A stretch of 14,224 bases of DNA, taken from NCBI GenBank assembly GCA_038279365.1, contig JAYODI010000014.1, positions 24,274-38,497 on the forward strand. The letters run 5' to 3'. The DNA is from Candidatus Latescibacterota bacterium. Lineage in GTDB: Bacteria > Latescibacterota > UBA2968. The notes below the pieces were generated by a model, which did no database searches, had not been told where the DNA came from, and worked only from the letters and a program-made list of their open reading frames with translations. The position numbers and the translations under genes are program-made. Shown here one piece after another: positions 1,316-14,220 of the stretch; positions within the stretch are counted from its first letter, which is position 1, and every line of letters begins with the position of its first letter.

Positions 1316-1358
1316 TTTTTTATTGATTTATATTTTTGTGTAAAAGGGATTGCATTGC

Positions 1359-1373
1359 TGGCACACGCATTGC
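1359..1373 (+). promoter_or_regulatory. sigma54 (RpoN) -24/-12 promoter of the hsp20-dnaJ-clpB operon
   Basis: TGGCACACGCATTGC matches TGGCAC-N5-TTGC with exact GG...GC spacing. The predicted start is about 1385, some 55 nt before the hsp20 ATG. Confidence 0.75.
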
Positions 1374-1440
1374 GATAGGTTTGGGTGTCAGGCAACAAAT
1401 AAAAATACAAACCAAAAACTTAAATATAAGGAGGTTTATT

Positions 1441-1875
1441 ATGGCACTCATTCGTTGGCAACCCCGTGACACGTTCGCAGTGAATCGTGAGATTGACAAT
1501 TTGGTCAACCAATTTTGGGGCGATTATGCAAACCGAAATGGTCAAGGATGGTATCCCAAAGTAGATATTGAAGAGCATGAAGGCAATTTTGTATTAAATG
1601 CAGAATTGCCAGGTTTGAATCGCGAAGATATTCAAGTGGCCTTAGAAGACGGTGTGTTGACAGTGTCGGGTGAACGCAAATTGCAAGAAGAAAAAGAAGG
1701 TAAAAATTATCTTCATCGTGAAAGGGCTTATGGCCGTTTCACACGTTCATTCCAAATGGGAAAAAATGTACAGGCTGACAAAATCTCCGCAACCTATAAA
1801 GATGGTGTGTTGCGCATTACGTTGCCCAAGGCAGAAGAAGTCAAACCCCGTCAAATAGAAGTAACGGTTTCATAA
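1441..1875 (+). CDS. Hsp20/alpha-crystallin family small heat shock protein (144 aa)
   Basis: The start is reassigned to ATG 1441 behind AGGAGG (1429-1434). Alpha-crystallin motifs are present: PKVDIEE, AELPG, LTVSGER, ERAYGRFTRSF, ATYKDGVLRITLPK, and a C-terminal IEV (IxI/V) motif. Confidence 0.97.
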   Translation: MALIRWQPRDTFAVNREIDNLVNQFWGDYANRNGQGWYPKVDIEEHEGNFVLNAELPGLNREDIQVALEDGVLTVSGERKLQEEKEGKNYLHRERAYGRFTRSFQMGKNVQADKISATYKDGVLRITLPKAEEVKPRQIEVTVS

Positions 1876-1895
1876 GTTTGTCAGTATAATTTGTT

Positions 1896-1928
1896 TTGGG
1901 CCATCTCGCATTGGGCGAGGTGGCCCAA
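1896..1928 (+). terminator. GC-rich hairpin between hsp20 and dnaJ (partial terminator or 3' stabiliser)
   Basis: TTGGGCCATCTCGC-ATTGG-GCGAGGTGGCCCAA forms a 14-bp stem with one G.U pair, followed by only an interrupted T tract (CTTATGTCTTTT). Confidence 0.6.
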
Positions 1929-1958
1929 CTTATGTCTTTTGAAAGGAGGTGGTGACTG

Positions 1959-2870
1959 ATGGAATTTAAAGACTATTATAACATTTTGGGCGTTACCAAA
2001 ACGGCGACCCAAGATGATATCCAAAAGGCTTATCGAAAGTTGGCTAAAAAATATCATCCCGATAAAAACAAAGACAATGGATCTGAAAACAAATTTAAAG
2101 AAATTGGCGAAGCGTATGATGTGCTCAAAGACCCAGAAAAACGGGCAAAATATGATCGATATGGTTCCGCATGGAAGGCCGCAGCAAACGGTCATCAGGC
2201 ACCGCCAGGGTTTGATGGGATTCGGTTTGAGTTTAATGGCAACGGTTTTGGAAAAAATGAAAGTTTTTTTGATATTCTGGAACACATGTTTGGCCACGGA
2301 ACGGGTGGGCATGGATTTGCTGGATTTGGTCAGCGAACCCGGCAGACAAACGGTGAAGATGTAGAAGCACGTTTGTCGCTCACGCTTGAAGATGCGATGC
2401 GTGGTGGCAAGCAAACCGTTTCGCTAAGAGATCCACAAACGGGTCGTCAAAAATCTTATACGGTTCATATTCCTGCCGGTGTCACCTCTGGGAAGCGGAT
2501 CCGTTTGGCTGGTCAAGGCCGAGAAGGCATCGGAAATGGCAAACCCGGAGATCTTTACCTTGTGGTTGATTTGGTTGACCATGCCAAATACGAAGTTAAA
2601 GGAAATCAGGTCTATACGACATTGGATGTTTTGCCCCACCAAGCAGCGTTGGGCGATAAAGTTATTGTAGATACACCCGAAGGCCAGGTGCGTATCAATA
2701 TTCCACCCCGGTCAAGCTCTGGACAAAAAATAAGGCTTAAAGGTCGTGGGCTTGGAGATGTTGGCGATCTTTATGTTGAAATTAGAATTGTGATGCCTAA
2801 AACTTTATCGGCACGCGAACAAGAACTTTATGAGCAGTTGGCCCAGGAGGCTGGTGTATCTGTTTCGTAA
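1959..2870 (+). CDS. Class B J-domain protein (CbpA-like DnaJ: J domain, G/F region, DnaJ_C, no zinc finger)
   Basis: MEFKDYY start, HPD motif, [15 protein letters not shown], a G/F-rich linker, and the C-terminal motifs IPAGV, IRLAGQG, GDLYL and RLKGRG. There are no CxxCxGxG repeats. RBS AAAGGAGGT at 1942-1950. Confidence 0.95.
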
Positions 2871-2922
2871 ACGGGATTTAAAAGAAAAAACGATTGGTGG
2901 TCTACTTAAAGGAGGACGCCCA

Positions 2923-5553
2923 ATGGATATGAACAAGTTAACGCATAAATCGCAAGAAGCCTTACAAGCGGCTCAGACCAAAGCTTTGCGATTTGGTCAT
3001 CAAGAAGTAGATGGGGAACATTTGCTGGTGTGTTTGTTGGAGCAAGCAGACGGTATTTTGCCACGAATTTTACAAAAAATGGATGTCAACGCAGAAGCCT
3101 TAAAACAAGCTGTTGAATCTGAATTGTCTCGAAAACCCAAAGTGTCGGGTTCGGGTGTGGAGCAAGGAAAGTTTTATGTGACACAGCGATTTCAAACGGT
3201 TTTTGTTAACGCAGAAGAAGAAGCAAAACGCTTAAAGGATGAATACGTTTCCATAGAACATTTGGTTTTGGCATTGATTGATGAAGGGAACAAAACATCT
3301 GCTGGACGGATTTTGAAACAATTTCAGGTTACTCGGGAAAGGTTTTTGGCTGTGTTGACCCAAATTCGTGGCAACCAACGTGTAACCAGTGCCACGCCTG
3401 AAAGTGCTTATGAAGCTTTGGAAAAATACGGCATTGATTTGGTTGCTGAAGCACGAAAAGGCAAGTTAGATCCTGTTATTGGTCGCGATGATGAAATTCG
3501 GCGCGTAATTCGCATATTGTCGCGCAAAACGAAGAACAATCCTGTGCTGATTGGTGAACCTGGTGTGGGTAAAACGGCTATTGTTGAAGGTCTTGCCCAA
3601 CGCATTGTACGTGGCGATGTGCCCGAATGGATTAAAGATCGTTCTGTGTTTTCCCTTGATATGGGGGCTCTGATGGCTGGGGCAAAATATCGAGGGGAAT
3701 TTGAAGAGCGTTTAAAAGCTGTCTTAAACGAAATTAAAAGCAGTGACGGACGCATTTTGCTCTTTATTGATGAAGTTCACACCATTGTTGGTGCAGGCAA
3801 AACGGAAGGTTCAACAGATGCTGGCAATATGTTAAAGCCTATGTTGGCACGTGGTGAATTGCACTGTATTGGGGCTACAACATTGGATGAGCATCGAAAA
3901 TACATTGAAAAAGATGCCGCTTTAGAACGACGGTTCCAACCTGTCATGGTGGATGCGCCAACCGTAGAAGATTCGGTGTCTATTTTGCGCGGTTTGCGCG
4001 AGCGTTTTGAAGTGCATCATGGGGTGCGCATTCAGGACAATGCATTGGTTCATGCGGTGACTTTGTCTGATCGCTACATCTCAGATCGTTTTTTGCCCGA
4101 TAAGGCCATTGATTTGGTAGATGAAGCCTGTGCCATGGTGCGCACGGAAATTGATTCGATGCCTGCCGAATTGGACGCAGTTACCCGACGGGTGATGCAA
4201 TTGGAAATAGAAGAGGCAGCTCTTAAAAAGGAAAAAGACAAGTCGAGTAAAGAACGGCTTGAAAATTTGCAAAAAGAATTGGTAGACTTAAAATCTCAAG
4301 CCGGTGCGATGCGTACACAGTGGGAAGCCGAAAAGGACGTGTTGGACTCTGTACGGGGTTTGCGTGAAGAAATAGAGCACGTAAAGTATGAAATAGAGCA
4401 AGCAGAACGCCAATATGACCTAAACCGAGCAGCCGAGCTCAAGCATGGCCGTTTGCCAGAGTTAGAACGCAAATTGGCACAAAGTGAGGGCCCTCAAATA
4501 AGCGACAATCGTTTGCTTCGTGAAGAAGTGACCGAAGATGAAATCGCCGATATTGTTTCGCGCTGGACAGGTATTCCTGTGGCGCGTTTGGTAGAAGGCG
4601 AGCGTGAAAAACTGTTGCGTTTAGACGATATTTTGCACGAACGGGTTATTGGTCAACACGAGGCCGTGAACTTGGTTGCCGATGCTGTGATTCGGGCGCG
4701 TGCGGGCATCAAAGACCCCCGCCGTCCTATCGGTTCGTTTATCTTTTTGGGACCCACAGGGGTGGGAAAAACGGAGTTGGCACGCACACTTGCCCAGGCT
4801 TTGTTTGATAGCGAAGACAATATGATTCGCATAGACATGAGTGAGTATATGGAAAAGCATACGGTGTCTCGCCTCATAGGTGCCCCTCCTGGGTATATCG
4901 GATTTGATGAAGGCGGGCAATTGACCGAAGCGGTGCGTCGAAAGCCTTATTCGGTGATCTTGTTTGATGAGATTGAAAAAGCCCATCCAGATGTATTTAA
5001 CGTATTGTTGCAGTTGCTCGATGATGGTCGTTTGACAGATTCTCAAGGGCATACGGTTGACTTCAAAAACACCGTGGTCATCATGACGTCTAATATTGGT
5101 TCACCTTTCTTGTTGGATGGTGTTACGCCAGAAGGTGATATCCAAGAATCTGCCCGGCAGGCCGTAATGCGGGAAATGCGGCAGCAATTTAGGCCTGAGT
5201 TTTTGAATCGCGTAGATGATATTGTGATGTTTAAACCGTTGGTGATGGACGAAATTGTACAGATTGTCGATTTGTTGGCGGCTGATCTAAGTCATCGGTT
5301 GGCTGAGCGACGGATCCAATTGACTTTGTCAAATGAAGTCAAAGAATATGTGGCAAAGGAAGGATTTGACCCTGTTTATGGGGCGCGCCCACTGAAGCGG
5401 TTTATTCAACGCGAGTTGGAAACGCGCATTGGACGGGCGTTAATTGGGGGAGAAATCTTGGAAGGCGCCCACATATTTGTTGAAATAGCAGATGGCGAAA
5501 TTCGGGTAAGCCATCAAAATGCAAAAGTAGAAAACCTAAAAGAAGTGGCATAA
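2923..5553 (+). CDS. clpB: ATP-dependent disaggregase ClpB (876 aa)
   Basis: The start is reassigned to ATG 2923 behind AAAGGAGG (2908-2915). It has Clp N repeats, NBD1 ([28 protein letters not shown]), a long coiled-coil M domain ([12 protein letters not shown]) and NBD2 ([33 protein letters not shown]). Confidence 0.98.
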
Positions 5554-5689
5554 TTTATAAAATGTTTTTTAACGCTCATAATTTGTAAACCCATCACTTT
5601 TAAAGGTGAGCTGGTATAACAAAGCTTCACCCCAAATAGGTGGTTAACGGGCAGTTGGTACAATATACGACTGCAACAATTTATGAACC

Positions 5690-5731
5690 AAACAGGCAGT
5701 GATCTCATCATGAGACCACTGCCTGTTTTTT
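5690..5731 (+). terminator. Rho-independent terminator downstream of clpB
   Basis: AAACAGGCAGTG-A-TCTCA-TCA-TGAGA-C-CACTGCCTGTTT is a long stem with one mismatch that ends in a run of 6 T (5726-5731). Confidence 0.85.
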
Positions 5732-5758
5732 ATTCCAATGGCATATAAAAGAAAGCAT

Positions 5759-5787
5759 TTGATCAGCCTATGACCCCATTGTATCTT
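5759..5787 (+). promoter_or_regulatory. Candidate sigma70-type promoter for the pyk operon
   Basis: TTGATC-N17-TATCTT lies just after the terminator and before the RBS AGGAGGT (5804-5810). Confidence 0.45.
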
Positions 5788-5813
5788 CTTTATCAAGCCT
5801 ACGAGGAGGTATT

Positions 5814-7238
5814 ATGAAAAAAGCAAAGATTGTGAGCACTTTGGGACCCGCCAGTTCTTCTGAAGAGATGTTGGAACAACTTATTGCGGCGGGGGTAGAT
5901 GTTTTTCGGCTCAATTTTTCGCATGGCACACAAGACGAACATTCAGAGCTGGTAAGCCGAATTAGGGCTGTTGCGCGTAAAATGAGTCGCCCTGTGGCCA
6001 TTTTGCAAGACTTGCAAGGCCCTAAAATAAGGGTGGGAAAGTTGGTAAAAGAACCCATTTTATTGGAAGCCGGAGCGCGTTTAACCATTACCACACGGGA
6101 TGTTCCAGGTGACAGCACATGTGTTCCCACTACTTATGAGGGCTTGCCCCGCGATGTAAAACCTGCAGATCGGGTCTTGCTTGATGATGGCAATATTGAG
6201 TTGGTGGTTCGTGAGGTTTATGGAACGGACGTCGTTTGTGAAGTGGTGGTAGGTGGCGATCTCAAATCAAATAAAGGTATTAATCTGCCGGGGGTAAGGG
6301 TGAGTGCCCCTTCGCTTACAACCAAAGATCGCGCTGATTTGGAATTGGGTATTGCGCTGGATGTCGATTTTATTGCATTGTCTTTTGTGCGAGAACCCGA
6401 TGATGTAAGAGAAGTTCAACACATCATATCTCAAGCTGGCAAAGATATTCCTGTTATTGCAAAGTTAGAACGGGGTGAGGCCGTAGATCGTTTAGAAGAA
6501 ATTTTAGAAGTCGCAGGTGGAGTGATGGTTGCACGAGGAGACTTGGGGGTAGAGGTGTCGCCAGAAGAAGTGCCTGTGCTTCAAAAGAAAATCATATCTG
6601 CGGCCAATCAGGCGGGTGTTTTGGTCATTACGGCAACGCAAATGTTGGAGTCTATGACTGATAATCCACGCCCAACACGTGCAGAAGCTTCGGATGTGGC
6701 CAATGCCATTTTTGATGGCACTGATGCCGTGATGTTGTCTGGGGAGACAGCCGTGGGCAAATATCCTGTTCGCACCGTTCAAATGATGGTGCGTATTATA
6801 GAAACTGCTGAAGCGAGTATGAAATATGATATGCCCATTTTGAGTTCGCACCGATCAGATGGTTCGCTGTCATTTCCAGATGCCATTGGACAAGCTGCTG
6901 CTGCCGTTTCTGCTGGTGTTTCGACAAAGGCCATTGTGGCTTTTACCCAATCGGGGTCTACTGCGCGGTTGATTTCTAAGCGGCGTCCTCGCACGCCCAT
7001 TGTTGCATTTACGCCCAGTGAGCGAATTTGGCGACAGCTGTGTTTGTGTTGGGGAACGGAATCTCGGCTTATTGCCCAAATTGAACAAACAGATCGTATG
7101 GTTTCTGAAGTGGAAGCGCGTTTGTTGTTGGAAGGCAGTGTGCGGGTAGGCGATACCCTTGTGATTTTGGCAGGAGCACCCATTACAGCCAAAGCGGAAA
7201 CAAATTTGCTCAAATTGCATCGGGTGGGTGAACGTTAA
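5814..7238 (+). CDS. pyk: Pyruvate kinase (474 aa), K+-independent signature
   Basis: Motifs KIVSTLGP, RLNFSHG, DLQGPKIR, KGINLPG, VIAKLE, MVARGDLGVE, TATQMLESM, PTRAEASDVANA and MLSGETA; strong RBS. Confidence 0.98.
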   Translation: MKKAKIVSTLGPASSSEEMLEQLIAAGVDVFRLNFSHGTQDEHSELVSRIRAVARKMSRPVAILQDLQGPKIRVGKLVKEPILLEAGARLTITTRDVPGDSTCVPTTYEGLPRDVKPADRVLLDDGNIELVVREVYGTDVVCEVVVGGDLKSNKGINLPGVRVSAPSLTTKDRADLELGIALDVDFIALSFVREPDDVREVQHIISQAGKDIPVIAKLERGEAVDRLEEILEVAGGVMVARGDLGVEVSPEEVPVLQKKIISAANQAGVLVITATQMLESMTDNPRPTRAEASDVANAIFDGTDAVMLSGETAVGKYPVRTVQMMVRIIETAEASMKYDMPILSSHRSDGSLSFPDAIGQAAAAVSAGVSTKAIVAFTQSGSTARLISKRRPRTPIVAFTPSERIWRQLCLCWGTESRLIAQIEQTDRMVSEVEARLLLEGSVRVGDTLVILAGAPITAKAETNLLKLHRVGER

Positions 7239-7300
7239 TATGTAATGGTGTTGGAAATGGTCTGGTTTTTGGATCTGTGCGTGGGATCGGTGAGGCATTT

Positions 7301-8689
7301 ATGGCAGAAGATATCATACAAGAAAAAGGTGTTGAAGACACAGAAGCCCGTATTCAGGCGTTGCTGGAGGTGGTGACGTCGTTGATGGCATTAGACGATG
7401 AGGCAGGGTTGCGCAAATTGCTGAATCAGGAGCACAGTGCAGATGTGGCAGATGTGCTTCGGCGGGTAGATGACGAAACAACCCAGCGGTTATTTGCCTA
7501 TTTGGACAGCACACAGGCTGCGGAAGCATTGGTTGAATCTGATGCATCCACTTTGCGAACCATTGTGGATGATTTGGAGCATGAGGCCTTGTCTGGGCTT
7601 GTTGAAGAAATGGCACCAGATGATGCGGTGGATGTGCTTGCCGAATTAGATGAAGAACATGCCGCTCAAGTCTTAAACTTTATGGATGAGGAAGAGGCAC
7701 AAGAATTACAAGACTTGTTGGCGCACGAAGAGGATACAGGCGGCGGGTTGATGACGCCCGATTTTGTGCTGGTGCACGAAGGGGCAACCGTTGGAGATGC
7801 GTTAATAGCATTACAAAATGAAGAAGAAGCCGCCGATTTGTTTTATGTGTTTGTGGTTGATGATGAAAACAGACCCGTTGGTGCGATTTCTATTCACAAA
7901 TTGGTGCGGGCAAAACCAAATCAATTGGTGAATACGATTATGACCAAAGACGTTGTGACGGTTGGTTACGATACGGATCAAGAAGAAATTGCGCACATTT
8001 TTGGGCGATATAATTTGATGGCGATGCCTGTGGTGGATGAGGCTGGGCGCTTGGTGGGGCGGATTACTGCAGATGATGTGATGGATGTTATTGAAGAAGA
8101 AAGCTCGGAAGATATTTACAAAATGGCAGGTACCAGCCATGACGAAACCGAAAATTTGTCGGTATTTGGGGTTGCCCGTTCTCGGTTGCCATGGTTGATG
8201 ATTTGCCTGGTTGGGAGTATCTTTTCTGGTGCAGTCATTCACTTGTTTGAGGCCACTTTGTCACAGGTGATTGCCTTGGCAGCATTCTTGCCCGTGATCA
8301 CAGCAACAGGGGGCAACAGTGGTTTACAAGCGTCTACAGTAACTGTGCGTGGGCTGGTTACTGGGCAGGTGTCATCGGGGCTCATTTTAAAAACGGTTTT
8401 TAGAGAATGTGGTATTGCACTGGTAATTGGTTTAACGTGTGGCGCAACTGCAAGTTGTGTGGCGTGGTTTTGGTTGGGTGAAACATTGGTGGGTATTTGT
8501 GTGGGGCTGGCTATGTTTTTGGCTATATCGGTTGCAGTACTGATGGGTGTTTTGGTGCCCATGACGTTTGATCGTTTGGGCATTGATCCTGCCATAGCTT
8601 CGGGGCCTTTTATCACCACAACCAATGATATTTTAGGCTTTTTTATTTATTTGGGCTTGGCAACGTTGATGTTGCAATATTTATCATAA
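7301..8689 (+). CDS. mgtE: Magnesium transporter MgtE (462 aa)
   Basis: ATG 7301 follows GAGG. It has an acidic N domain, GGLMTP, a CBS pair, RSRLPWL, GGNSGLQ, and DPAIASGPFITTTND with the conserved pore Asp. Confidence 0.96.
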   Translation: MAEDIIQEKGVEDTEARIQALLEVVTSLMALDDEAGLRKLLNQEHSADVADVLRRVDDETTQRLFAYLDSTQAAEALVESDASTLRTIVDDLEHEALSGLVEEMAPDDAVDVLAELDEEHAAQVLNFMDEEEAQELQDLLAHEEDTGGGLMTPDFVLVHEGATVGDALIALQNEEEAADLFYVFVVDDENRPVGAISIHKLVRAKPNQLVNTIMTKDVVTVGYDTDQEEIAHIFGRYNLMAMPVVDEAGRLVGRITADDVMDVIEEESSEDIYKMAGTSHDETENLSVFGVARSRLPWLMICLVGSIFSGAVIHLFEATLSQVIALAAFLPVITATGGNSGLQASTVTVRGLVTGQVSSGLILKTVFRECGIALVIGLTCGATASCVAWFWLGETLVGICVGLAMFLAISVAVLMGVLVPMTFDRLGIDPAIASGPFITTTNDILGFFIYLGLATLMLQYLS

Positions 8690-8702: not shown

Positions 8703-9530
8703 ATGGAATCCGTACAAGGAGATTTCGTCACAAATTTGATACAGTCTGACCTGTTTCAATATATCAAAATGGCCAGTCAGGTGGTTTTGTTGGTGCTTGT
8801 GGGATGGTTTGGAGGGATGTGGGCCCGAAGAGGGATTTTAAAGTCTGCACGTAAAATGGGTTTTGATGAGATTTTGTGGGGTTATTTTGGTACTGTGGTT
8901 CGTTATACCATCATGATAGTTTCATTTACCACAGCCATACGCATGGCAGGGATTGATATTTCTCCTATTCTGGCAACTTTTGGTATCAGCGGTGTGATCA
9001 TTGGGTTGGGAGCCAGGCAATCGATTTCCAATTATTTTTTTGGCATTATGATGTTATCCGCTCGTCCCTTTAAGCGGGGGGATTTGATTGAGTTTGGGCC
9101 CCCGCCACAAATAGGGGTTGTGCGTGAAGTGAAAATGACCTACACCGCAATGGATACCTTAGACAATGTGAGATTGGTGGTGCCAAATTCGGTGGTGTGG
9201 CGAGGAAAAATTACCAATTTTTCCGTTCATACAGATCGGGCCATAAAAATCACGATAAAATTTGGCTATGATGTGGATGTCGATTGGGTTCGGGATTTGG
9301 CCGTAAATGTTCTTTACGATCACAGTGCGGTTTTGAACAATCCTGAACCTCGGTTTACGCTGGGCAATATGACAAGTGATCATGTAATTGCGCAACTTGT
9401 TGCCTGGAGCAGAGTTGAAACAATGACTGTTTTTGGTGATGTGATTACGCAAATGCGTAAAGCTTTTGAAACGGCTGGCCTCAGTGTTGTTGTTCCTGCT
9501 GGAGATATTGATTTGAAACGTGAGGAATAG
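8703..9530 (+). CDS. Small-conductance mechanosensitive channel (MscS family)
   Basis: Three predicted TM segments, a Gly-rich TM3 (GISGVIIGLGA), RPFKRGDLIE, GVVREV, VVPNS, ITNFS and a C-terminal beta/alpha domain. Confidence 0.92.
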   Translation: MESVQGDFVTNLIQSDLFQYIKMASQVVLLVLVGWFGGMWARRGILKSARKMGFDEILWGYFGTVVRYTIMIVSFTTAIRMAGIDISPILATFGISGVIIGLGARQSISNYFFGIMMLSARPFKRGDLIEFGPPPQIGVVREVKMTYTAMDTLDNVRLVVPNSVVWRGKITNFSVHTDRAIKITIKFGYDVDVDWVRDLAVNVLYDHSAVLNNPEPRFTLGNMTSDHVIAQLVAWSRVETMTVFGDVITQMRKAFETAGLSVVVPAGDIDLKREE

Positions 9531-9532
9531 GC

Positions 9533-11035
9533 ATGCCCGAAGAGACAAAAGAAAACGAAACGGTATGGCTTGATTTTGATACTGTTATGGCGCGGTTGAC
9601 CCTGAAGCGCCCCGAACTGTATCGCTTGGTGAAAGATGGCAAGTTAAAAGCCGAAAAAAAAGATCAATTGCTTCGGTTTTCGGAAACGGTTGTGGTTGAT
9701 TTTGATACAAAACGCAATAATGACGAAAAAGTTTTGTTGGATGCCATTGTCGCTTGGGAAGTGTTGCTTTCAGAACGGTTTCCAATACCTAAAAAAGAAG
9801 AAGCTCCACCGACCGAAGCTCCCAAACAAGAAGAGGCTGAACGGGTTGACTCAAATTCCGAAAAAGATAAACCCATTGCAGAAACACCTGAGGTTCCAAC
9901 AGAAACAAACGTGTCGAAACCTACAGAAGTTAAGGTTGATGTGGGCGCACGCGTGAAGGCATTGGTGGATCAGTTGGTTCGGGCAGGTATTCGCGAGGGC
10001 ATTACAGATCTTTATGTAGATCCGTTGTCTGTTGGTGATCGCATTCTATTCCGCTATGGTGATGCACTCGTCAACTTGGGGAAAGTTGAGGCGTGTTTGT
10101 CTGGGCCATTGCGGGTTGCATTGCGAGAATTTGGTAAGATTGCCAACGATGATGATGTGACCAAACGGCGTGGTATCGTGGCATTAACCGAACAAGAGCA
10201 GGGGCATCAAATACTCATAGAGATTGCTCCCACCCGTCTTGGTGATCATGTGCATATTCATTATTGGGGTGCCGATAAGAGTGCCGATTTGTCTGCGTTG
10301 GGATATTCTGATGAGCAAGCAAATCTTGTAATGAATCAGTTGGCTGCATCTGGATGTATTCTGATTGCGCGGGGTGTGGGAGCTTTTGACGATTTGCACC
10401 ATGTGGCTTTGGGGCGTGCAGTTGCCGAAAGCAATTTGGTTGTTTCTTGTGAGACGGGCATTTTTCCCAAATCAGAGCATTTGGTACAAGTGACAGTAAA
10501 TGCCAAAGATGAAAACGGTTTGGCAACAGCCCTAGACACGGCATTGGGTTTGGAGCCAGATGTGTTGATGATAGATTTGGTGTCAAAACCCGAAGAGTTA
10601 AAAGCCTTGTTTGCCATTTTGTCGATGGGGGGCGTGGTGGTGGCGGGGGTTCGGGCTTTGGATATGGCAGATGTTTTTCGTCGGTTTGCTGCATCAGATA
10701 TTGAAACAGAACAGCTTCAAAAGTGGCTATCTTTTGGCATCGAAAGAGCCTGGGTTCGTCGTTTATGCCCCGATTGTAAAACTGTGCGTGAAATGACGGA
10801 TGAAGAAAAAGGTTTTTGGAAAACGGAAAAAGAAGCACGTGTATGTGAACCTGTTGGATGTGTCCGTTGTCAAAATGGATATTTGGATCGGCGTGGTATT
10901 TTTGGTATTCGTCGAAAGCATTTGTCAACGGATTGTTTGGGAGCGGGTTCGGTGATTCGCAAGTGCTTGTTGGATGGCGAAATATCGGAAACCGATGCCC
11001 GCCAAGTGTATGCACGCTTTGGGGAGGTCTCTTAG
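9533..11035 (+). CDS. Excisionase-like HTH fused to a degenerate PilB/GspE-family ATPase domain (probable pseudo-ATPase)
   Basis: The N-terminus WLDFDTVMARLTLKRPELYRLVKDGKLKAEK...LRF resembles HTH_17/Xis and is followed by a P/E/K/T-rich linker. GspE-like segments then appear in the expected order: LVDQLVRAGIREGITDLYVDP...ILFRYG, APTRLGD, LSALGYS, LVQVTVN, ALGLEPDVLMI, RRLCPDCK...GCVRCQNGYLDRRGIF, LLDGEIS. Confidence 0.8.
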   Translation: MPEETKENETVWLDFDTVMARLTLKRPELYRLVKDGKLKAEKKDQLLRFSETVVVDFDTKRNNDEKVLLDAIVAWEVLLSERFPIPKKEEAPPTEAPKQEEAERVDSNSEKDKPIAETPEVPTETNVSKPTEVKVDVGARVKALVDQLVRAGIREGITDLYVDPLSVGDRILFRYGDALVNLGKVEACLSGPLRVALREFGKIANDDDVTKRRGIVALTEQEQGHQILIEIAPTRLGDHVHIHYWGADKSADLSALGYSDEQANLVMNQLAASGCILIARGVGAFDDLHHVALGRAVAESNLVVSCETGIFPKSEHLVQVTVNAKDENGLATALDTALGLEPDVLMIDLVSKPEELKALFAILSMGGVVVAGVRALDMADVFRRFAASDIETEQLQKWLSFGIERAWVRRLCPDCKTVREMTDEEKGFWKTEKEARVCEPVGCVRCQNGYLDRRGIFGIRRKHLSTDCLGAGSVIRKCLLDGEISETDARQVYARFGEVS

Positions 11036-11051
11036 CAATTTTTAGGAATCT

Positions 11052-12869
11052 ATGAAGCAAATTTCCAATTTTTTTAGGTCTGCTTTTTGGGGTATACTGA
11101 TCGTGCTTTTCTGGCACCCATTGCGTGTCATGGCCCAAGATGACCTCGTAATCGAGTCGCTCCAGTTTTGGGGCAATAAAGAAATATCAACCAGTGTGTT
11201 GAACGCGCAAATGCTTACCAAGGCCACGCCATGGTACGATTTTATGCCATTTGTAAAGCCCCGCAAATTTGATGCGGGGCTGTTTCATAGTGATATGCAG
11301 CGTTTAAGGGCGTTTTATCAAGGAAAAGGTTTTTATCAAGTCCAAATTGATACCACGTTGGGACAGCGTAAAAATGGACACCTCTTTGCTCAGATTCGTA
11401 TAAAAGAAGGTCCTCGTTCTCGTTTTGGTATGCTCCAAATATTGGGGGTAGACAGCAGTCGTATAAGTGTTCATGGGGTGGTTGCCGATTTGCAAAAACT
11501 TTCGGGAGAACCTTTTGTACAAACTCAACTGGCAACCGAATTAACAAATGCTTTGCGCGTGTTAAGAAATGAGGGATTTGCATTTACCAAAGCAGAAGTT
11601 ACCTCTTTTGTAGATAGTCTGTTGGTCAATGTTGATGTTATTTTTGAACTGGGGCCAATGTGTACGGTTTCTGATATTCAGATCAGTGGCAATGTAGGTG
11701 TTTCCCAAAAAACGGTTTTAAGGGGACTCACGTTTGCTGAAGGGCAGGTGTTTGAGGGGAAGCAGTTGGATGACAGCCGTCGACAATTGTATCGGGCTGG
11801 TGTGTTTCGCGCTGTGCGCATCGACCTACCCGACACTGTTTTGCAGTATACACCCGTGCGAGTCAATGTGTCTGAACGCCCTTTTCGGAGTATGACATTG
11901 GGTGGGGGGTATGATACCGAAATTGGTCTTCGGGCATCTGCGGCCTGGTTGCATAGGAACTTTGGGGGGGGCGCAAGACAGTTGAGGCTTTCTGGTAGGG
12001 TGTCTTCTGCATCAAGAGATATTGTGGTGGGTATTCGAGAACCCTACTTTTTTGGGGGGCGCAACTGGTTAAACTTGAGCGGTTTTGTTCAAAGACGCCA
12101 ACAGGCCGATGCAGAACAAAATGAATTGGGTGGCAGTACGTCATTTGAGCGAAACATATCTGAGCGGTTGGATTTTGTGCTTCAATTTAGTGGTGGGTTG
12201 GTGGCTTCGCAAACCGACAGTGCTTTTAGTGAGATACGGGCTGCATTACGTTGGGATACACGTGATGATCTTTTTGATCCACACGAGGGTTTTTTGGCAT
12301 CCTTTACGGTGAGAGAGCGCGGGTGGTGGTTACATTCTCCTTGGGAATTTTGGGAGGTGACCACAGAAGGGCGTTGGTTTCAGCCGTTGCCTTTTAAGAA
12401 TGTGTGGGGTATTCGATTGGTGGGCGGTGCCATATTTCGGATCAATACACGCGAAGATGTGCCCACCATAGAGCGATATTACAGTGGGGGATTAAACAGT
12501 GTGCGCGGTTGGAGTTATCAGGAATTGGGACCTAAGGAAATTCGTTTTGACAATAAAAAAATGAGGGATGAGATCGTTCCTCTTGGTGGTACCAGTCACT
12601 TTGAGGGAAGCATTGAACTGCGAACGACCTTGTTGCGTTATTTTGGGACGGCATTGTTTGTCGATGCCGCACGGGTGGCGAATGAACTCAATGCTTTTTC
12701 CCTGCCAGATTTACAATGGTCTGTTGGAGGCGGATTGCGTTTGCTCACACCTGTGGGACCCGTGCGTTTTGATGTTGGATATCGCATATCAGATGATCCT
12801 GTGTTAGACAATCATGTCGATTTTGATTCTCGATGGCGCTTGCATTGGAGTTTGGGACAGGCTTTTTAG
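11052..12869 (+). CDS. Omp85-family outer-membrane protein, TamA-like (signal peptide, about 3 POTRA domains, beta-barrel)
   Basis: Signal peptide ending VMA|Q; POTRA-type segments (FWGNKEIS...YQGKGF, LRNEGF, ISGN...LYRAGVF); barrel motifs WDTRDD, YSGGLNSVRGW, TPVGPVRFD; C-terminal SLGQAF. It lies directly upstream of a TamB-like gene. Confidence 0.92.
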   Translation: MKQISNFFRSAFWGILIVLFWHPLRVMAQDDLVIESLQFWGNKEISTSVLNAQMLTKATPWYDFMPFVKPRKFDAGLFHSDMQRLRAFYQGKGFYQVQIDTTLGQRKNGHLFAQIRIKEGPRSRFGMLQILGVDSSRISVHGVVADLQKLSGEPFVQTQLATELTNALRVLRNEGFAFTKAEVTSFVDSLLVNVDVIFELGPMCTVSDIQISGNVGVSQKTVLRGLTFAEGQVFEGKQLDDSRRQLYRAGVFRAVRIDLPDTVLQYTPVRVNVSERPFRSMTLGGGYDTEIGLRASAAWLHRNFGGGARQLRLSGRVSSASRDIVVGIREPYFFGGRNWLNLSGFVQRRQQADAEQNELGGSTSFERNISERLDFVLQFSGGLVASQTDSAFSEIRAALRWDTRDDLFDPHEGFLASFTVRERGWWLHSPWEFWEVTTEGRWFQPLPFKNVWGIRLVGGAIFRINTREDVPTIERYYSGGLNSVRGWSYQELGPKEIRFDNKKMRDEIVPLGGTSHFEGSIELRTTLLRYFGTALFVDAARVANELNAFSLPDLQWSVGGGLRLLTPVGPVRFDVGYRISDDPVLDNHVDFDSRWRLHWSLGQAF

Positions 12870-12879
12870 GTGATGGTCA

Positions 12880-14220
12880 ATGACAAAAAAATATAAATGG
12901 TTGGGTGCTCTTGGTGGATCAGGATTGGTTTTTGTTTTGCTGGTAGGTATGTTCTATTGGGTTTTGGTTTCTGGCAAAGCAAATGGATGGATTCGTGACT
13001 ATCTCGTAGACGAATTGTCGAGTCAGTTGGCATTACCTTGTCACATAGGACATATTGAAGGCAACCCTTTTGGTGGATATCAGGTGTTGGATGTACGGGT
13101 GGGAGACTTGTTTTTGGCAGATACGATAGAGGTGCATTATAAACCCGTTTTTGCTTACCGTGTTGTGATCGATTCGCTAAAGATAAAAGGATTACAAGTA
13201 AACATATCAGAAATCAAAAACGCAGAATCTCCAAAAGATTTTAACGCATTAAAAACATGGGTGCCTTTTGAAATTGCCAATATTGACATTGCTCGGGGCA
13301 CGGTTGTTTTGGCCGATAAAACTGAAATATCCAATCTGTTTTTTAGGGGTGGATTCTCTGCGAGAGACGATGTTTTCAAACTCATTGTGTCACGCTACCA
13401 GTCTCATCAATTTGATCCGCCATGGGTGATCTCAAATTTAAGTGGGATAGGGGTTATGGATGGCGGACAAATTGCATTGCAAGATGTAGCGTTGTCATTG
13501 CCACACTCTCAAATTTACTTGAGTGGTAAGGTGGGTAATTTGAATCGTCCCCTATTTGATTTTTCATTTCGCGGCAATCCGTTGTCCTTGCAAGATTTTC
13601 GTACATGGCTGCCTGATCAGTCACCTGACTTGTTATTTGATGCAGAGGGTGTGTTACGCGGTGGTTTACAATCTGCATCTGCAGAAATGACAGTTCAATG
13701 GGATGCTACGACGACGAATATTTCCGTCAATGGTTCTTTGGTGCCGCTCGATATTCGCGTAGATGCCCATGCATTGATGCACCCATTTACATTACAGAAA
13801 ATATTAAAAAGTGAGACGAACGTTCTTGCAGAAGGAAAAGTAGATGCTGTTGTTTATCTCGACTCTATGGGGGTTAATACGGTAAGCACGGAGGCGCATA
13901 TTACGCGATTGGTGGTGGGTGAGGTGGTTCAAAAAGAAACCCTTGTCAAGGTGTCATACGATGCTGGAGATGTGTCTGGAGAAATAACAACTGTTGGGAC
14001 TTTGGGGCATTTGGATCTGCGAGGCAATTATCACTTAGGCCATAAAAAGGGACAGGCTCAGATTGAGTTTCAAGAATTAGATGTGTCATTGCTGCCTGAA
14101 GCACCAAGGGAACTCAAAAAGCTTACGGGGCAAGTTTCAATTGTTTCCGATTCGTTATGGACTGGGCAACTTCATTTGACAAAAGCTTTTTACGATTCAA
14201 ATGAATTCAAGAATTTATAG
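12880..14220 (+). CDS. TamB/AsmA-like inner-membrane-anchored beta-taco protein (N-terminal portion; stop codon 4 nt from the window end)
   Basis: Basic N-terminus plus one TM helix, then IRDYLVDELSSQL...HIGHIEGNPF and long amphipathic beta-strand sequence. It starts 10 nt after the tamA-like gene. No DUF490-type C-terminus is visible. Confidence 0.7.
   Translation: MTKKYKWLGALGGSGLVFVLLVGMFYWVLVSGKANGWIRDYLVDELSSQLALPCHIGHIEGNPFGGYQVLDVRVGDLFLADTIEVHYKPVFAYRVVIDSLKIKGLQVNISEIKNAESPKDFNALKTWVPFEIANIDIARGTVVLADKTEISNLFFRGGFSARDDVFKLIVSRYQSHQFDPPWVISNLSGIGVMDGGQIALQDVALSLPHSQIYLSGKVGNLNRPLFDFSFRGNPLSLQDFRTWLPDQSPDLLFDAEGVLRGGLQSASAEMTVQWDATTTNISVNGSLVPLDIRVDAHALMHPFTLQKILKSETNVLAEGKVDAVVYLDSMGVNTVSTEAHITRLVVGEVVQKETLVKVSYDAGDVSGEITTVGTLGHLDLRGNYHLGHKKGQAQIEFQELDVSLLPEAPRELKKLTGQVSIVSDSLWTGQLHLTKAFYDSNEFKNL

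Follow-up and report, generated by a model that had tools for sequence, protein, structure and literature searches.

In this work we analysed a stretch of 14,224 nucleotides (nt) from a Candidatus Latescibacterota bacterium (GenBank assembly GCA_038279365.1, contig JAYODI010000014.1, positions 24,274 to 38,497), hereafter the window, and in particular the open reading frame (ORF) at 9533-11035, whose product joins a predicted helix-turn-helix (HTH) to a GspE/PilB-type scaffold that lacks the canonical catalytic residues and is presumably inactive as an enzyme. The gene belongs to a conserved family and lies directly 3' of a gene for an MscS-type small mechanosensitive channel. We give about an even chance to the reading that this conserved dead GspE/PilB-type protein does not act as a motor and instead regulates a module of ion and osmotic homeostasis. 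It must be noted that PilB/GspE-type ATPases are usually regarded as dedicated motors of type IV filaments; the clade described here lost all the catalytic motifs, acquired a DNA-binding-type domain and moved beside a mechanosensitive channel gene, and with it one would have a clear example of a pseudoenzyme regulator that began as a secretion motor. The features of the gene and of its product are the following (window positions, protein residues in brackets).

9533-11035, + strand: HTH-pseudo-GspE/PilB gene (P0001), intact, 500 codons and 500 amino acids (aa)
9522-9526, + strand: Shine-Dalgarno (SD) sequence GAGGA, within the final two mscS codons (Glu-Glu), 6 nt 5' of the ATG
9566-9703, + strand: predicted winged HTH of the HTH_17/excisionase type (residues 12-57), from HTH_17 and the structural model
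9683-9778, + strand: long helix 3' of the HTH (residues 51-82), present in both structural models
9785-9937, + strand: acidic linker rich in Pro, Glu, Thr and Lys (residues ~85-135), low model confidence (51-69), no secondary structure
9941-10282, + strand: N2D-like domain (residues ~137-250), from profile alignment, structural model and Foldseek
10241-10267, + strand: His strand GDHVHIHYW in the N2D-like domain, in the place of the Lys/Arg strand
10352-10396, + strand: ex-Walker A (residues 274-288), GPTGSGKS replaced by RGVGAFDD
10439-10462, + strand: ex-Asp box (residues 303-310), VEDPIE replaced by SCETGI
10544-10585, + strand: ex-Walker B (residues 338-351), VMVGEIRD replaced by LMVDLVSK, with Leu at the catalytic Glu position
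10628-10657, + strand: ex-His box (residues 366-375), TGHLVMSTLHT replaced by MGGVVVAGVRA, both His gone
10766-10870, + strand: retained zinc-type tetracysteine site CxxC...CxxC (CPDC at 10766-10777, CVRC at 10859-10870)

The preliminary description of this DNA, made from its letters alone, had proposed a GspE/PilB-derived scaffold at residues ~140-495, and the comparisons upheld it. The Pfam model T2SSE (PF00437) matched residues 140-459 (E=5.8e-19, 68.4 bits, cutoff 24.9). A search of the PDB with a profile built from the ORF protein and five close homologues returned 12 distinct sequences at E<=0.001, all of them GspE/EpsE, PilB or PilF, with Vibrio cholerae EpsE (1p9r) as the best match (E=6.3e-17). 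The AlphaFold2 (AF2) model made with a 126-row alignment had a predicted local distance difference test score (pLDDT) of 90.7 and a predicted template modelling score of 0.84, and its top Foldseek matches were PilF, PilB and EpsE (E=1.3e-24 to about 1e-22), with template modelling scores up to 0.78 (5tsh_E, 16% identity). When AF2 was given six close sequences alone the pLDDT was 42 and only the HTH was usable. The NCBIfam PilB/GspE models gave the ORF protein 64-67 bits, about one tenth of their equivalog cutoffs of 617-676 (individually, 66.7 bits for a cutoff of 675.65 and 63.7 for one of 630.25). From alignment and model, the motor core formed by N2D and the C-terminal domain (CTD), including the tetracysteine site, appears to be retained as a folded scaffold.

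The motif pairings listed above were obtained by aligning the family profile to EpsE 1p9r. In this alignment the Lys and Ser/Thr positions of Walker A are both Asp, and the basic residues of N2D are swapped (DGR to RGI, FRV to ILI, and GEKvvLR to GDHvhIH), the arginines being replaced by Ile, Leu and His. In GspE/PilB the N2D arginines face the nucleotide. The sequence-only reading had likewise described an intact 500-codon frame with a ribosome-binding site, the loss of Walker A, Asp box, Walker B and His box, the replacement of the N2D arginines and the persistence of four Cys; all of this was recovered, the motif strings lying within 10352-10870, both CxxC pairs aligning to those of EpsE and each of the four Cys being kept by 35 of the 36 family rows.

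The same losses extend to the whole family, in which GK[ST] was absent from all 40 rows that cover the Walker A region. In the wider family the ex-motifs read VVSLEHR (Asp box), PDVLFIDDVR (Walker B) and AGxxVVAQxRA (His box), while H241 and D348, which are Val and Gly, respectively, in canonical proteins, were each conserved in 34 of 36 family rows. The most conserved family 9-mers fell in the ex-Asp box, the N2D His strand, the HTH, the two Zn knuckles and the ex-Walker B, the one of lowest entropy (residues 300-308) overlapping the ex-Asp box, and the P-loop was not among them. Since former active-site segments are among the most conserved 9-mers and the P-loop is not, the pocket looks rewritten and maintained, not abandoned. 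In these alignments the nucleotide pocket is rebuilt, with the His-x-His-x-His strand and the Asp at the Walker B Gly position as its new conserved residues.

With respect to the N-terminus, the prediction is an excisionase/MerR-type winged HTH that replaces N1D/MshEN, which agrees with the Xis-like HTH of the preliminary description. HTH_17 (PF12728) matched 31 of 34 family members (E<=0.01) and passed the Pfam cutoff in relatives of the ORF protein (33 bits in P0014 and 29.5 bits in the protein of locus L001, introduced below). The AF2 model had a winged topology, with strand 12-13, helices 15-22 and 26-34 and strands 41-43 and 46-50 (pLDDT ~97), and the same elements appeared in the shallow model. 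No match to the MshEN domain was found in the ORF protein, its place being occupied by HTH_17. The match to TIGR01764 ('excise') was sub-threshold, and the HTH region by itself matched no PDB sequence at E<=10. The helix at residues 51-82 is a possible dimerisation helix, and the linker that follows it differs in sequence and length among close homologues. Databases automatically name members of the family GspE/PulE/PilB-like ATPase or excisionase-family DNA-binding protein; the name ATPase is misleading for members that have no P-loop.

In a word-based search (8000 scored candidates) 13 proteins were found at E<=1e-3, namely the query together with five relatives that share 55-81% identity with it and seven canonical PilB/GspE that share 20-24%. 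The five relatives carry every motif substitution, so that no close homologue had intact Walker motifs, and 99 columns were invariant among the 6 sequences. An exhaustive profile search, in which 1.84 billion proteins were scored, gave 8096 matches at E<=0.001, and the 39 cluster representatives at E<=1e-30 were mostly of 426-506 aa, with a few shorter fragments, and had the same HTH and T2SSE core. In a FastTree phylogeny of 125 rows, the 44 family rows without G..G.GK[ST], P0001 included, were set apart from all other rows by a branch of support 100, and three further rows negative for this expression fell among canonical proteins. A quick IQ-TREE run on a hand-chosen subset of 43 rows (21 of the 44 family rows and 22 canonical ones) gave the same split a Shimodaira-Hasegawa-like approximate likelihood ratio of 100. 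The stem of the window subfamily is long (~1.1 changes per site), and its placement beside P0030 carries a long-branch warning. The check for a shared loss of Walker A in homologues of the same architecture, suggested from the sequence, gave a uniform answer: the family HTH profile matched 39 of 162 collected proteins and Walker A was present in none of the 39, and as the profile was made from the family itself, only its zero among canonical proteins is informative. The Walker-less clade is, on these comparisons, old, conserved and maintained, and not a lone decayed gene.

A profile scan over genome contigs with the close-subfamily alignment gave 31 pattern matches, none of which was confirmed, and with a 10-row alignment it gave three loci (L001, L002 and L003), all in metagenome-assembled genomes of Ca. 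Latescibacterota. L002 (3-842) carries a C-terminal part (query residues 214-473) and L003 (7980-8747) an N-terminal part (residues 9-242), both at contig ends of the same genome, and they are probably a single family gene split by an assembly break. In the ESM Atlas, clusters labelled 'Helix-turn-helix/Type II/IV secretion system protein' have the same two Pfam domains, HTH_17 and T2SSE, with Planctomycetota as the commonest phylum, scores of 0.90-0.92 and 61-64 members each, a likeness by language-model features alone and not by sequence comparison, which serves as a lead only. PADLOC assigned no defence family to the ORF protein or to its MscS partner, and gave a weak match to the mad1 HTH for P0014 only.

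The genomic position of the family is given by the following features.

8703-9530, + strand: MscS-type small mechanosensitive channel gene, 275 aa (Pfam MS_channel_1st/2nd/3rd; NCBIfam MscS subfamily, E=9e-29)
DIDLKREE tail of the MscS protein: window 9510-9530, L001 7950-7970, L003 7960-7982

In all three DNA contexts (window, L001 and L003) the pseudo-GspE gene is directly 3' of an MscS-type gene of 275-277 aa, and the junction consists of GAGGAA-stop, 2-3 nt and ATG. This junction shows the pseudo-GspE gene to be coupled in its predicted translation to the MscS-type gene. The window MscS shares 58 and 67% identity with the products of the genes that immediately precede the family members in L001 and L003, respectively, and 27% with an MscS paralogue in L003, while the pseudo-GspE proteins of the three contexts are ~30% identical. 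One gene further upstream every context has an ion transporter, which is MgtE in the window, while in L001 and L003 it is a K+ channel with a TrkA_N (RCK) domain, and the genes 3' of the module differ between contexts. Pfam scans revealed no pilus or type II secretion system (T2SS) genes in the window or in L001-L003. The term orphan, applied earlier to the protein, is thus right for the window, which has no pilus/T2SS genes, and wrong for the protein, which has a family and a conserved MscS-type neighbour. Since the conserved partner is an MscS-type gene and not a pilus/T2SS gene, the biology of the family is more likely to be sought in ion and osmotic homeostasis.

The C-terminal tail DIDLKREE of MscS was invariant or nearly so in 20 orthologues. 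It must be noted that the SD sequence of the next gene lies in the last two codons of this tail, so that protein and translation signals are jointly constrained there. In L003, positions 1866-7983 form an 'ion-channel island' with a Castor/Pollux-like RCK channel, two more MscS paralogues, the K+ channel with TrkA_N and the MscS-pseudoGspE pair.

Linkage in the rest of the family was approached by a proxy, the exact match of longest-contig sizes between 30 pseudo-GspE clusters and the 120 MscS homologues listed. A match was obtained for 19 of the 30 clusters, and co-residence is physically possible in 18 of them, the window's own pair included; several of the matched contigs measure 2.7-5.6 kb, a size at which co-residence amounts to adjacency or near-adjacency. 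In a control with 120 pyruvate kinase (PK) homologues, two of the 30 clusters matched, both close relatives of the window. The PKs closest to the window PK, P0294 and P0295 (93 and 92% identical to it), have longest-contig sizes that match those of pseudo-GspE P0002 and P0005, and the synteny of PK with pseudo-GspE seems confined to the close subfamily. The window PK also shares 90% identity with a PK from a metagenome-assembled genome of a Candidatus Latescibacteria bacterium. Among 13 matched pairs (78 comparisons, not independent), the pairwise identities of MscS and pseudo-GspE rise together (Spearman 0.41), with a mean identity of 62% for MscS and 37% for the pseudo-GspE core.

In the regulator reading, the HTH would bind DNA, most simply at the promoter of its own module, and the pseudo-ATPase core would provide oligomerisation, use its remodelled pocket to sense a ligand or ion of the cytoplasm, or both. 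The features that would make up this pocket are the HxHxH strand, the Asp conserved where Walker B has its Gly and a Glu that is conserved within the ex-Asp box. At its simplest the protein would be a one-component regulator. In a bolder version, which we hold to be distinctly unlikely, the protein would dock on the cytoplasmic cage of MscS, and its binding to DNA would then follow the state of the channel (membrane tension or ion flux); if this were true, a channel-coupled transcription factor would have arisen from a dead secretion motor, and the mechanics of the envelope would act on gene expression by a new route. Full-text literature searches, subscription-only papers being outside their coverage, gave no description of an HTH-T2SSE fusion, of a natural Walker-less PilB/GspE or of an MscS-GspE link. 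The position of the family beside an MscS-type gene, and not beside pilus genes, points to a regulatory role that would be new to the literature.

Several observations weigh against the proposal of a regulator. The 126-row alignment behind the AF2 model consisted mostly of canonical ATPases, so that the model speaks for compatibility with the fold and not for independence from those proteins. In the ORF protein itself, HTH_17 matched residues 12-56 with E=4.2e-4 and 21 bits, below the Pfam cutoff of 27, and a search for operators upstream of the modules found no shared inverted repeat. With regard to linkage, longest-contig matching is a proxy for co-residence and not a direct reading of adjacency. 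One match, P0035/P0189 (1731 bp), was ruled out, as the pair of genes would not fit into fewer than 2259 bp and comes from different sources, and 11 of the 30 clusters had no MscS match among the 120 homologues listed. In the subclade of P0034, P0038, P0039, P0044, P0046 and P0054, three members were looked up (P0034, P0038 and P0039) and none had an MscS match. Finally, the pseudo-GspE family evolves much faster than its MscS neighbours, as the mean identities above indicate. The subclade of P0034 is well supported, and of its three looked-up clusters two come from long contigs (0.77 and 0.92 Mb); the MscS linkage may have been lost in it, or it may have MscS proteins that diverged too far to be among the homologues listed.

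We consider unlikely, yet worth weighing first among the alternatives, that the protein is an accessory subunit of MscS, in which the pseudo-ATPase docks on the cytoplasmic cage of the channel and modulates or reports its gating, the HTH serving as a DNA tether or as a module of protein contact. The conserved adjacency with the SD sequence in the last mscS codons at the three loci, the probable shared contig in the 18 clusters and the covariation of identities (from non-independent comparisons) are all consistent with it, and DIDLKREE could serve as a docking peptide, though the SD sequence also constrains its last codons. However, the symmetries do not match, MscS being a heptamer and PilB/GspE-type rings being hexamers; no MscS-pseudoGspE fusion was present among the matches of the word-based and exhaustive searches; and co-regulation explains the adjacency equally well.

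The preliminary description had offered, as one of two possibilities, an inhibitory subunit linking pilus or T2SS status to DNA. Such a 'poison' or regulatory subunit would co-assemble with active PilB/GspE hexamers, and the N2D and CTD scaffold, which makes the ring contacts in PilB/GspE, is indeed kept; moreover, a report on single-amplified genomes of Latescibacteria describes type IV pilus genes in them (PMC4454575). Nevertheless, the gene context gave this proposal no support, as the conserved partner is an MscS-type gene and the window and L001-L003 are devoid of pilus/T2SS genes. The identity to canonical PilB/GspE is 16-24% and the platform-coupling N1D/MshEN domain is absent, and we regard the proposal as very unlikely.

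There is also a slight chance that the protein is not a true pseudoenzyme and still binds, or weakly hydrolyses, nucleotide in a non-canonical pocket, given that the ex-active-site segments are the most conserved parts of the family and that its wider members often keep an acidic residue at the Walker B catalytic Glu position (DDVR/DEVR). This is opposed by the absence of the P-loop Lys and Ser/Thr from every covering family row and, in the window subfamily, by the Leu at the Walker B Glu, the missing His of the His box and the replaced Arg/Lys of N2D. A decaying, functionless PilB/GspE remnant, to which the loss of every catalytic motif and the long stem of the window subfamily could be ascribed and which the preliminary description had itself named as the simple counter-explanation, is already contradicted by intact full-length ORFs throughout a 44-row clade with maintained loss, by the invariant columns of the six close homologues, by the kept Cys ligands and by the conserved gene position with its coupled SD sequence, and its probability is negligible.

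In relation to known systems, GspE/EpsE and PilB/PilF (PF00437; 1p9r, 5tsh, 5oiu) share with the ORF protein N2D and CTD, the order of the motif segments and the CxxC...CxxC subdomain. Unlike them, it has no Walker A Lys or Ser/Thr, Asp box, Walker B Glu, His box or N2D arginines, no N1D/MshEN and no pilus/T2SS neighbours, and it scores below the NCBIfam equivalog cutoffs. By homology it is therefore placed in the T2SSE superfamily, yet in sequence it fails every catalytic feature of membership in GspE/PilB. The excisionase and MerR-type proteins (PF12728, TIGR01764) share the strand-helix-helix-wing, the Tyr-Arg of the second helix and the long helix that follows, and MerR-type one-component regulators have an N-terminal HTH and a C-terminal effector domain, a layout like that of the ORF protein. 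In contrast to these proteins, its C-terminal module is a 360-residue pseudo-ATPase attached by a disordered acidic linker, and its HTH scores are below both the Pfam and TIGR cutoffs, DNA binding being a prediction.

A further parallel is offered by pseudoenzyme receptors that derive from signalling enzymes, such as FimX, a protein with degenerate GGDEF and EAL domains that regulates PilB (PMC11656802). They share with the ORF protein the principle of a dead catalytic domain kept as a binding or regulatory module, whereas fold and system are different and in the ORF protein it is the motor ATPase that has lost its activity motifs. A review from 2024 on PilB with its cofactors covers the zinc motif, N1D and the partners of PilB, and the passages retrieved from it mention neither a natural dead PilB nor an HTH-fused PilB (PMC11656802). 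In this regard, the family is a natural experiment that separates structural from catalytic parts of PilB/GspE, the Zn subdomain and the N2D-CTD packing having been kept and the pocket rewritten. It would also offer a first handle on the control of ion and osmotic homeostasis in the uncultured phylum Latescibacterota.

The window contains ten genes, all but one of them on the + strand. Apart from the MscS-type and pseudo-GspE genes, its features are the following.

3-1142, - strand: EF-hand/dockerin-like protein, EF-hand matches below the cutoff and dockerin match at the cutoff; runs off the window
1336-1875, + strand: HSP20
1959-2870, + strand: DnaJ-type protein (J domain and DnaJ_C)
2830-5553, + strand: ClpB, listed ORF of 907 aa
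5690-5728: inverted repeat with a T-run behind it (19-nt arms, 95% complementary, 1-nt loop)
5814-7238, + strand: PK
7277-8689, + strand: MgtE
11052-12869, + strand: Omp85/BamA-TamA-like protein with POTRA repeats (BamA model 238 bits, cutoff 297; TamA-like match)
12880-14220, + strand: protein with a weak DUF748 match, starting 10 nt past the Omp85-family gene; runs off the window end

The matches of the first gene suggest a putative Ca-binding repeat protein. HSP20, the DnaJ-type protein and ClpB form a heat-shock cluster (1336-5553), in which the listed ClpB ORF and the DnaJ gene have 41 nt in common and the first Clp_N repeat of ClpB begins at residue 48, so that the true start of ClpB is probably further downstream. 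The hairpin at 5690-5728 with its T-run, the one strong hairpin that the operator search gave, is probably the clpB terminator, and the genes for PK, MgtE and the MscS-type channel form a closely packed run after it; with the terminator there, the promoter of the PK-MgtE-MscS-pseudoGspE-Omp85 run is predicted between ~5730 and 5813. The Omp85-family and DUF748 genes (11052-14220) may be a TamA/TamB-like pair, which was not conserved 3' of the family gene in L001 or L002. Rfam and tRNA scans of the window gave no matches. The GC skew was positive in every 1-kb interval of the whole stretch (0.14-0.31), and this, together with nine of the ten genes lying on the + strand, is what is expected for a leading strand.

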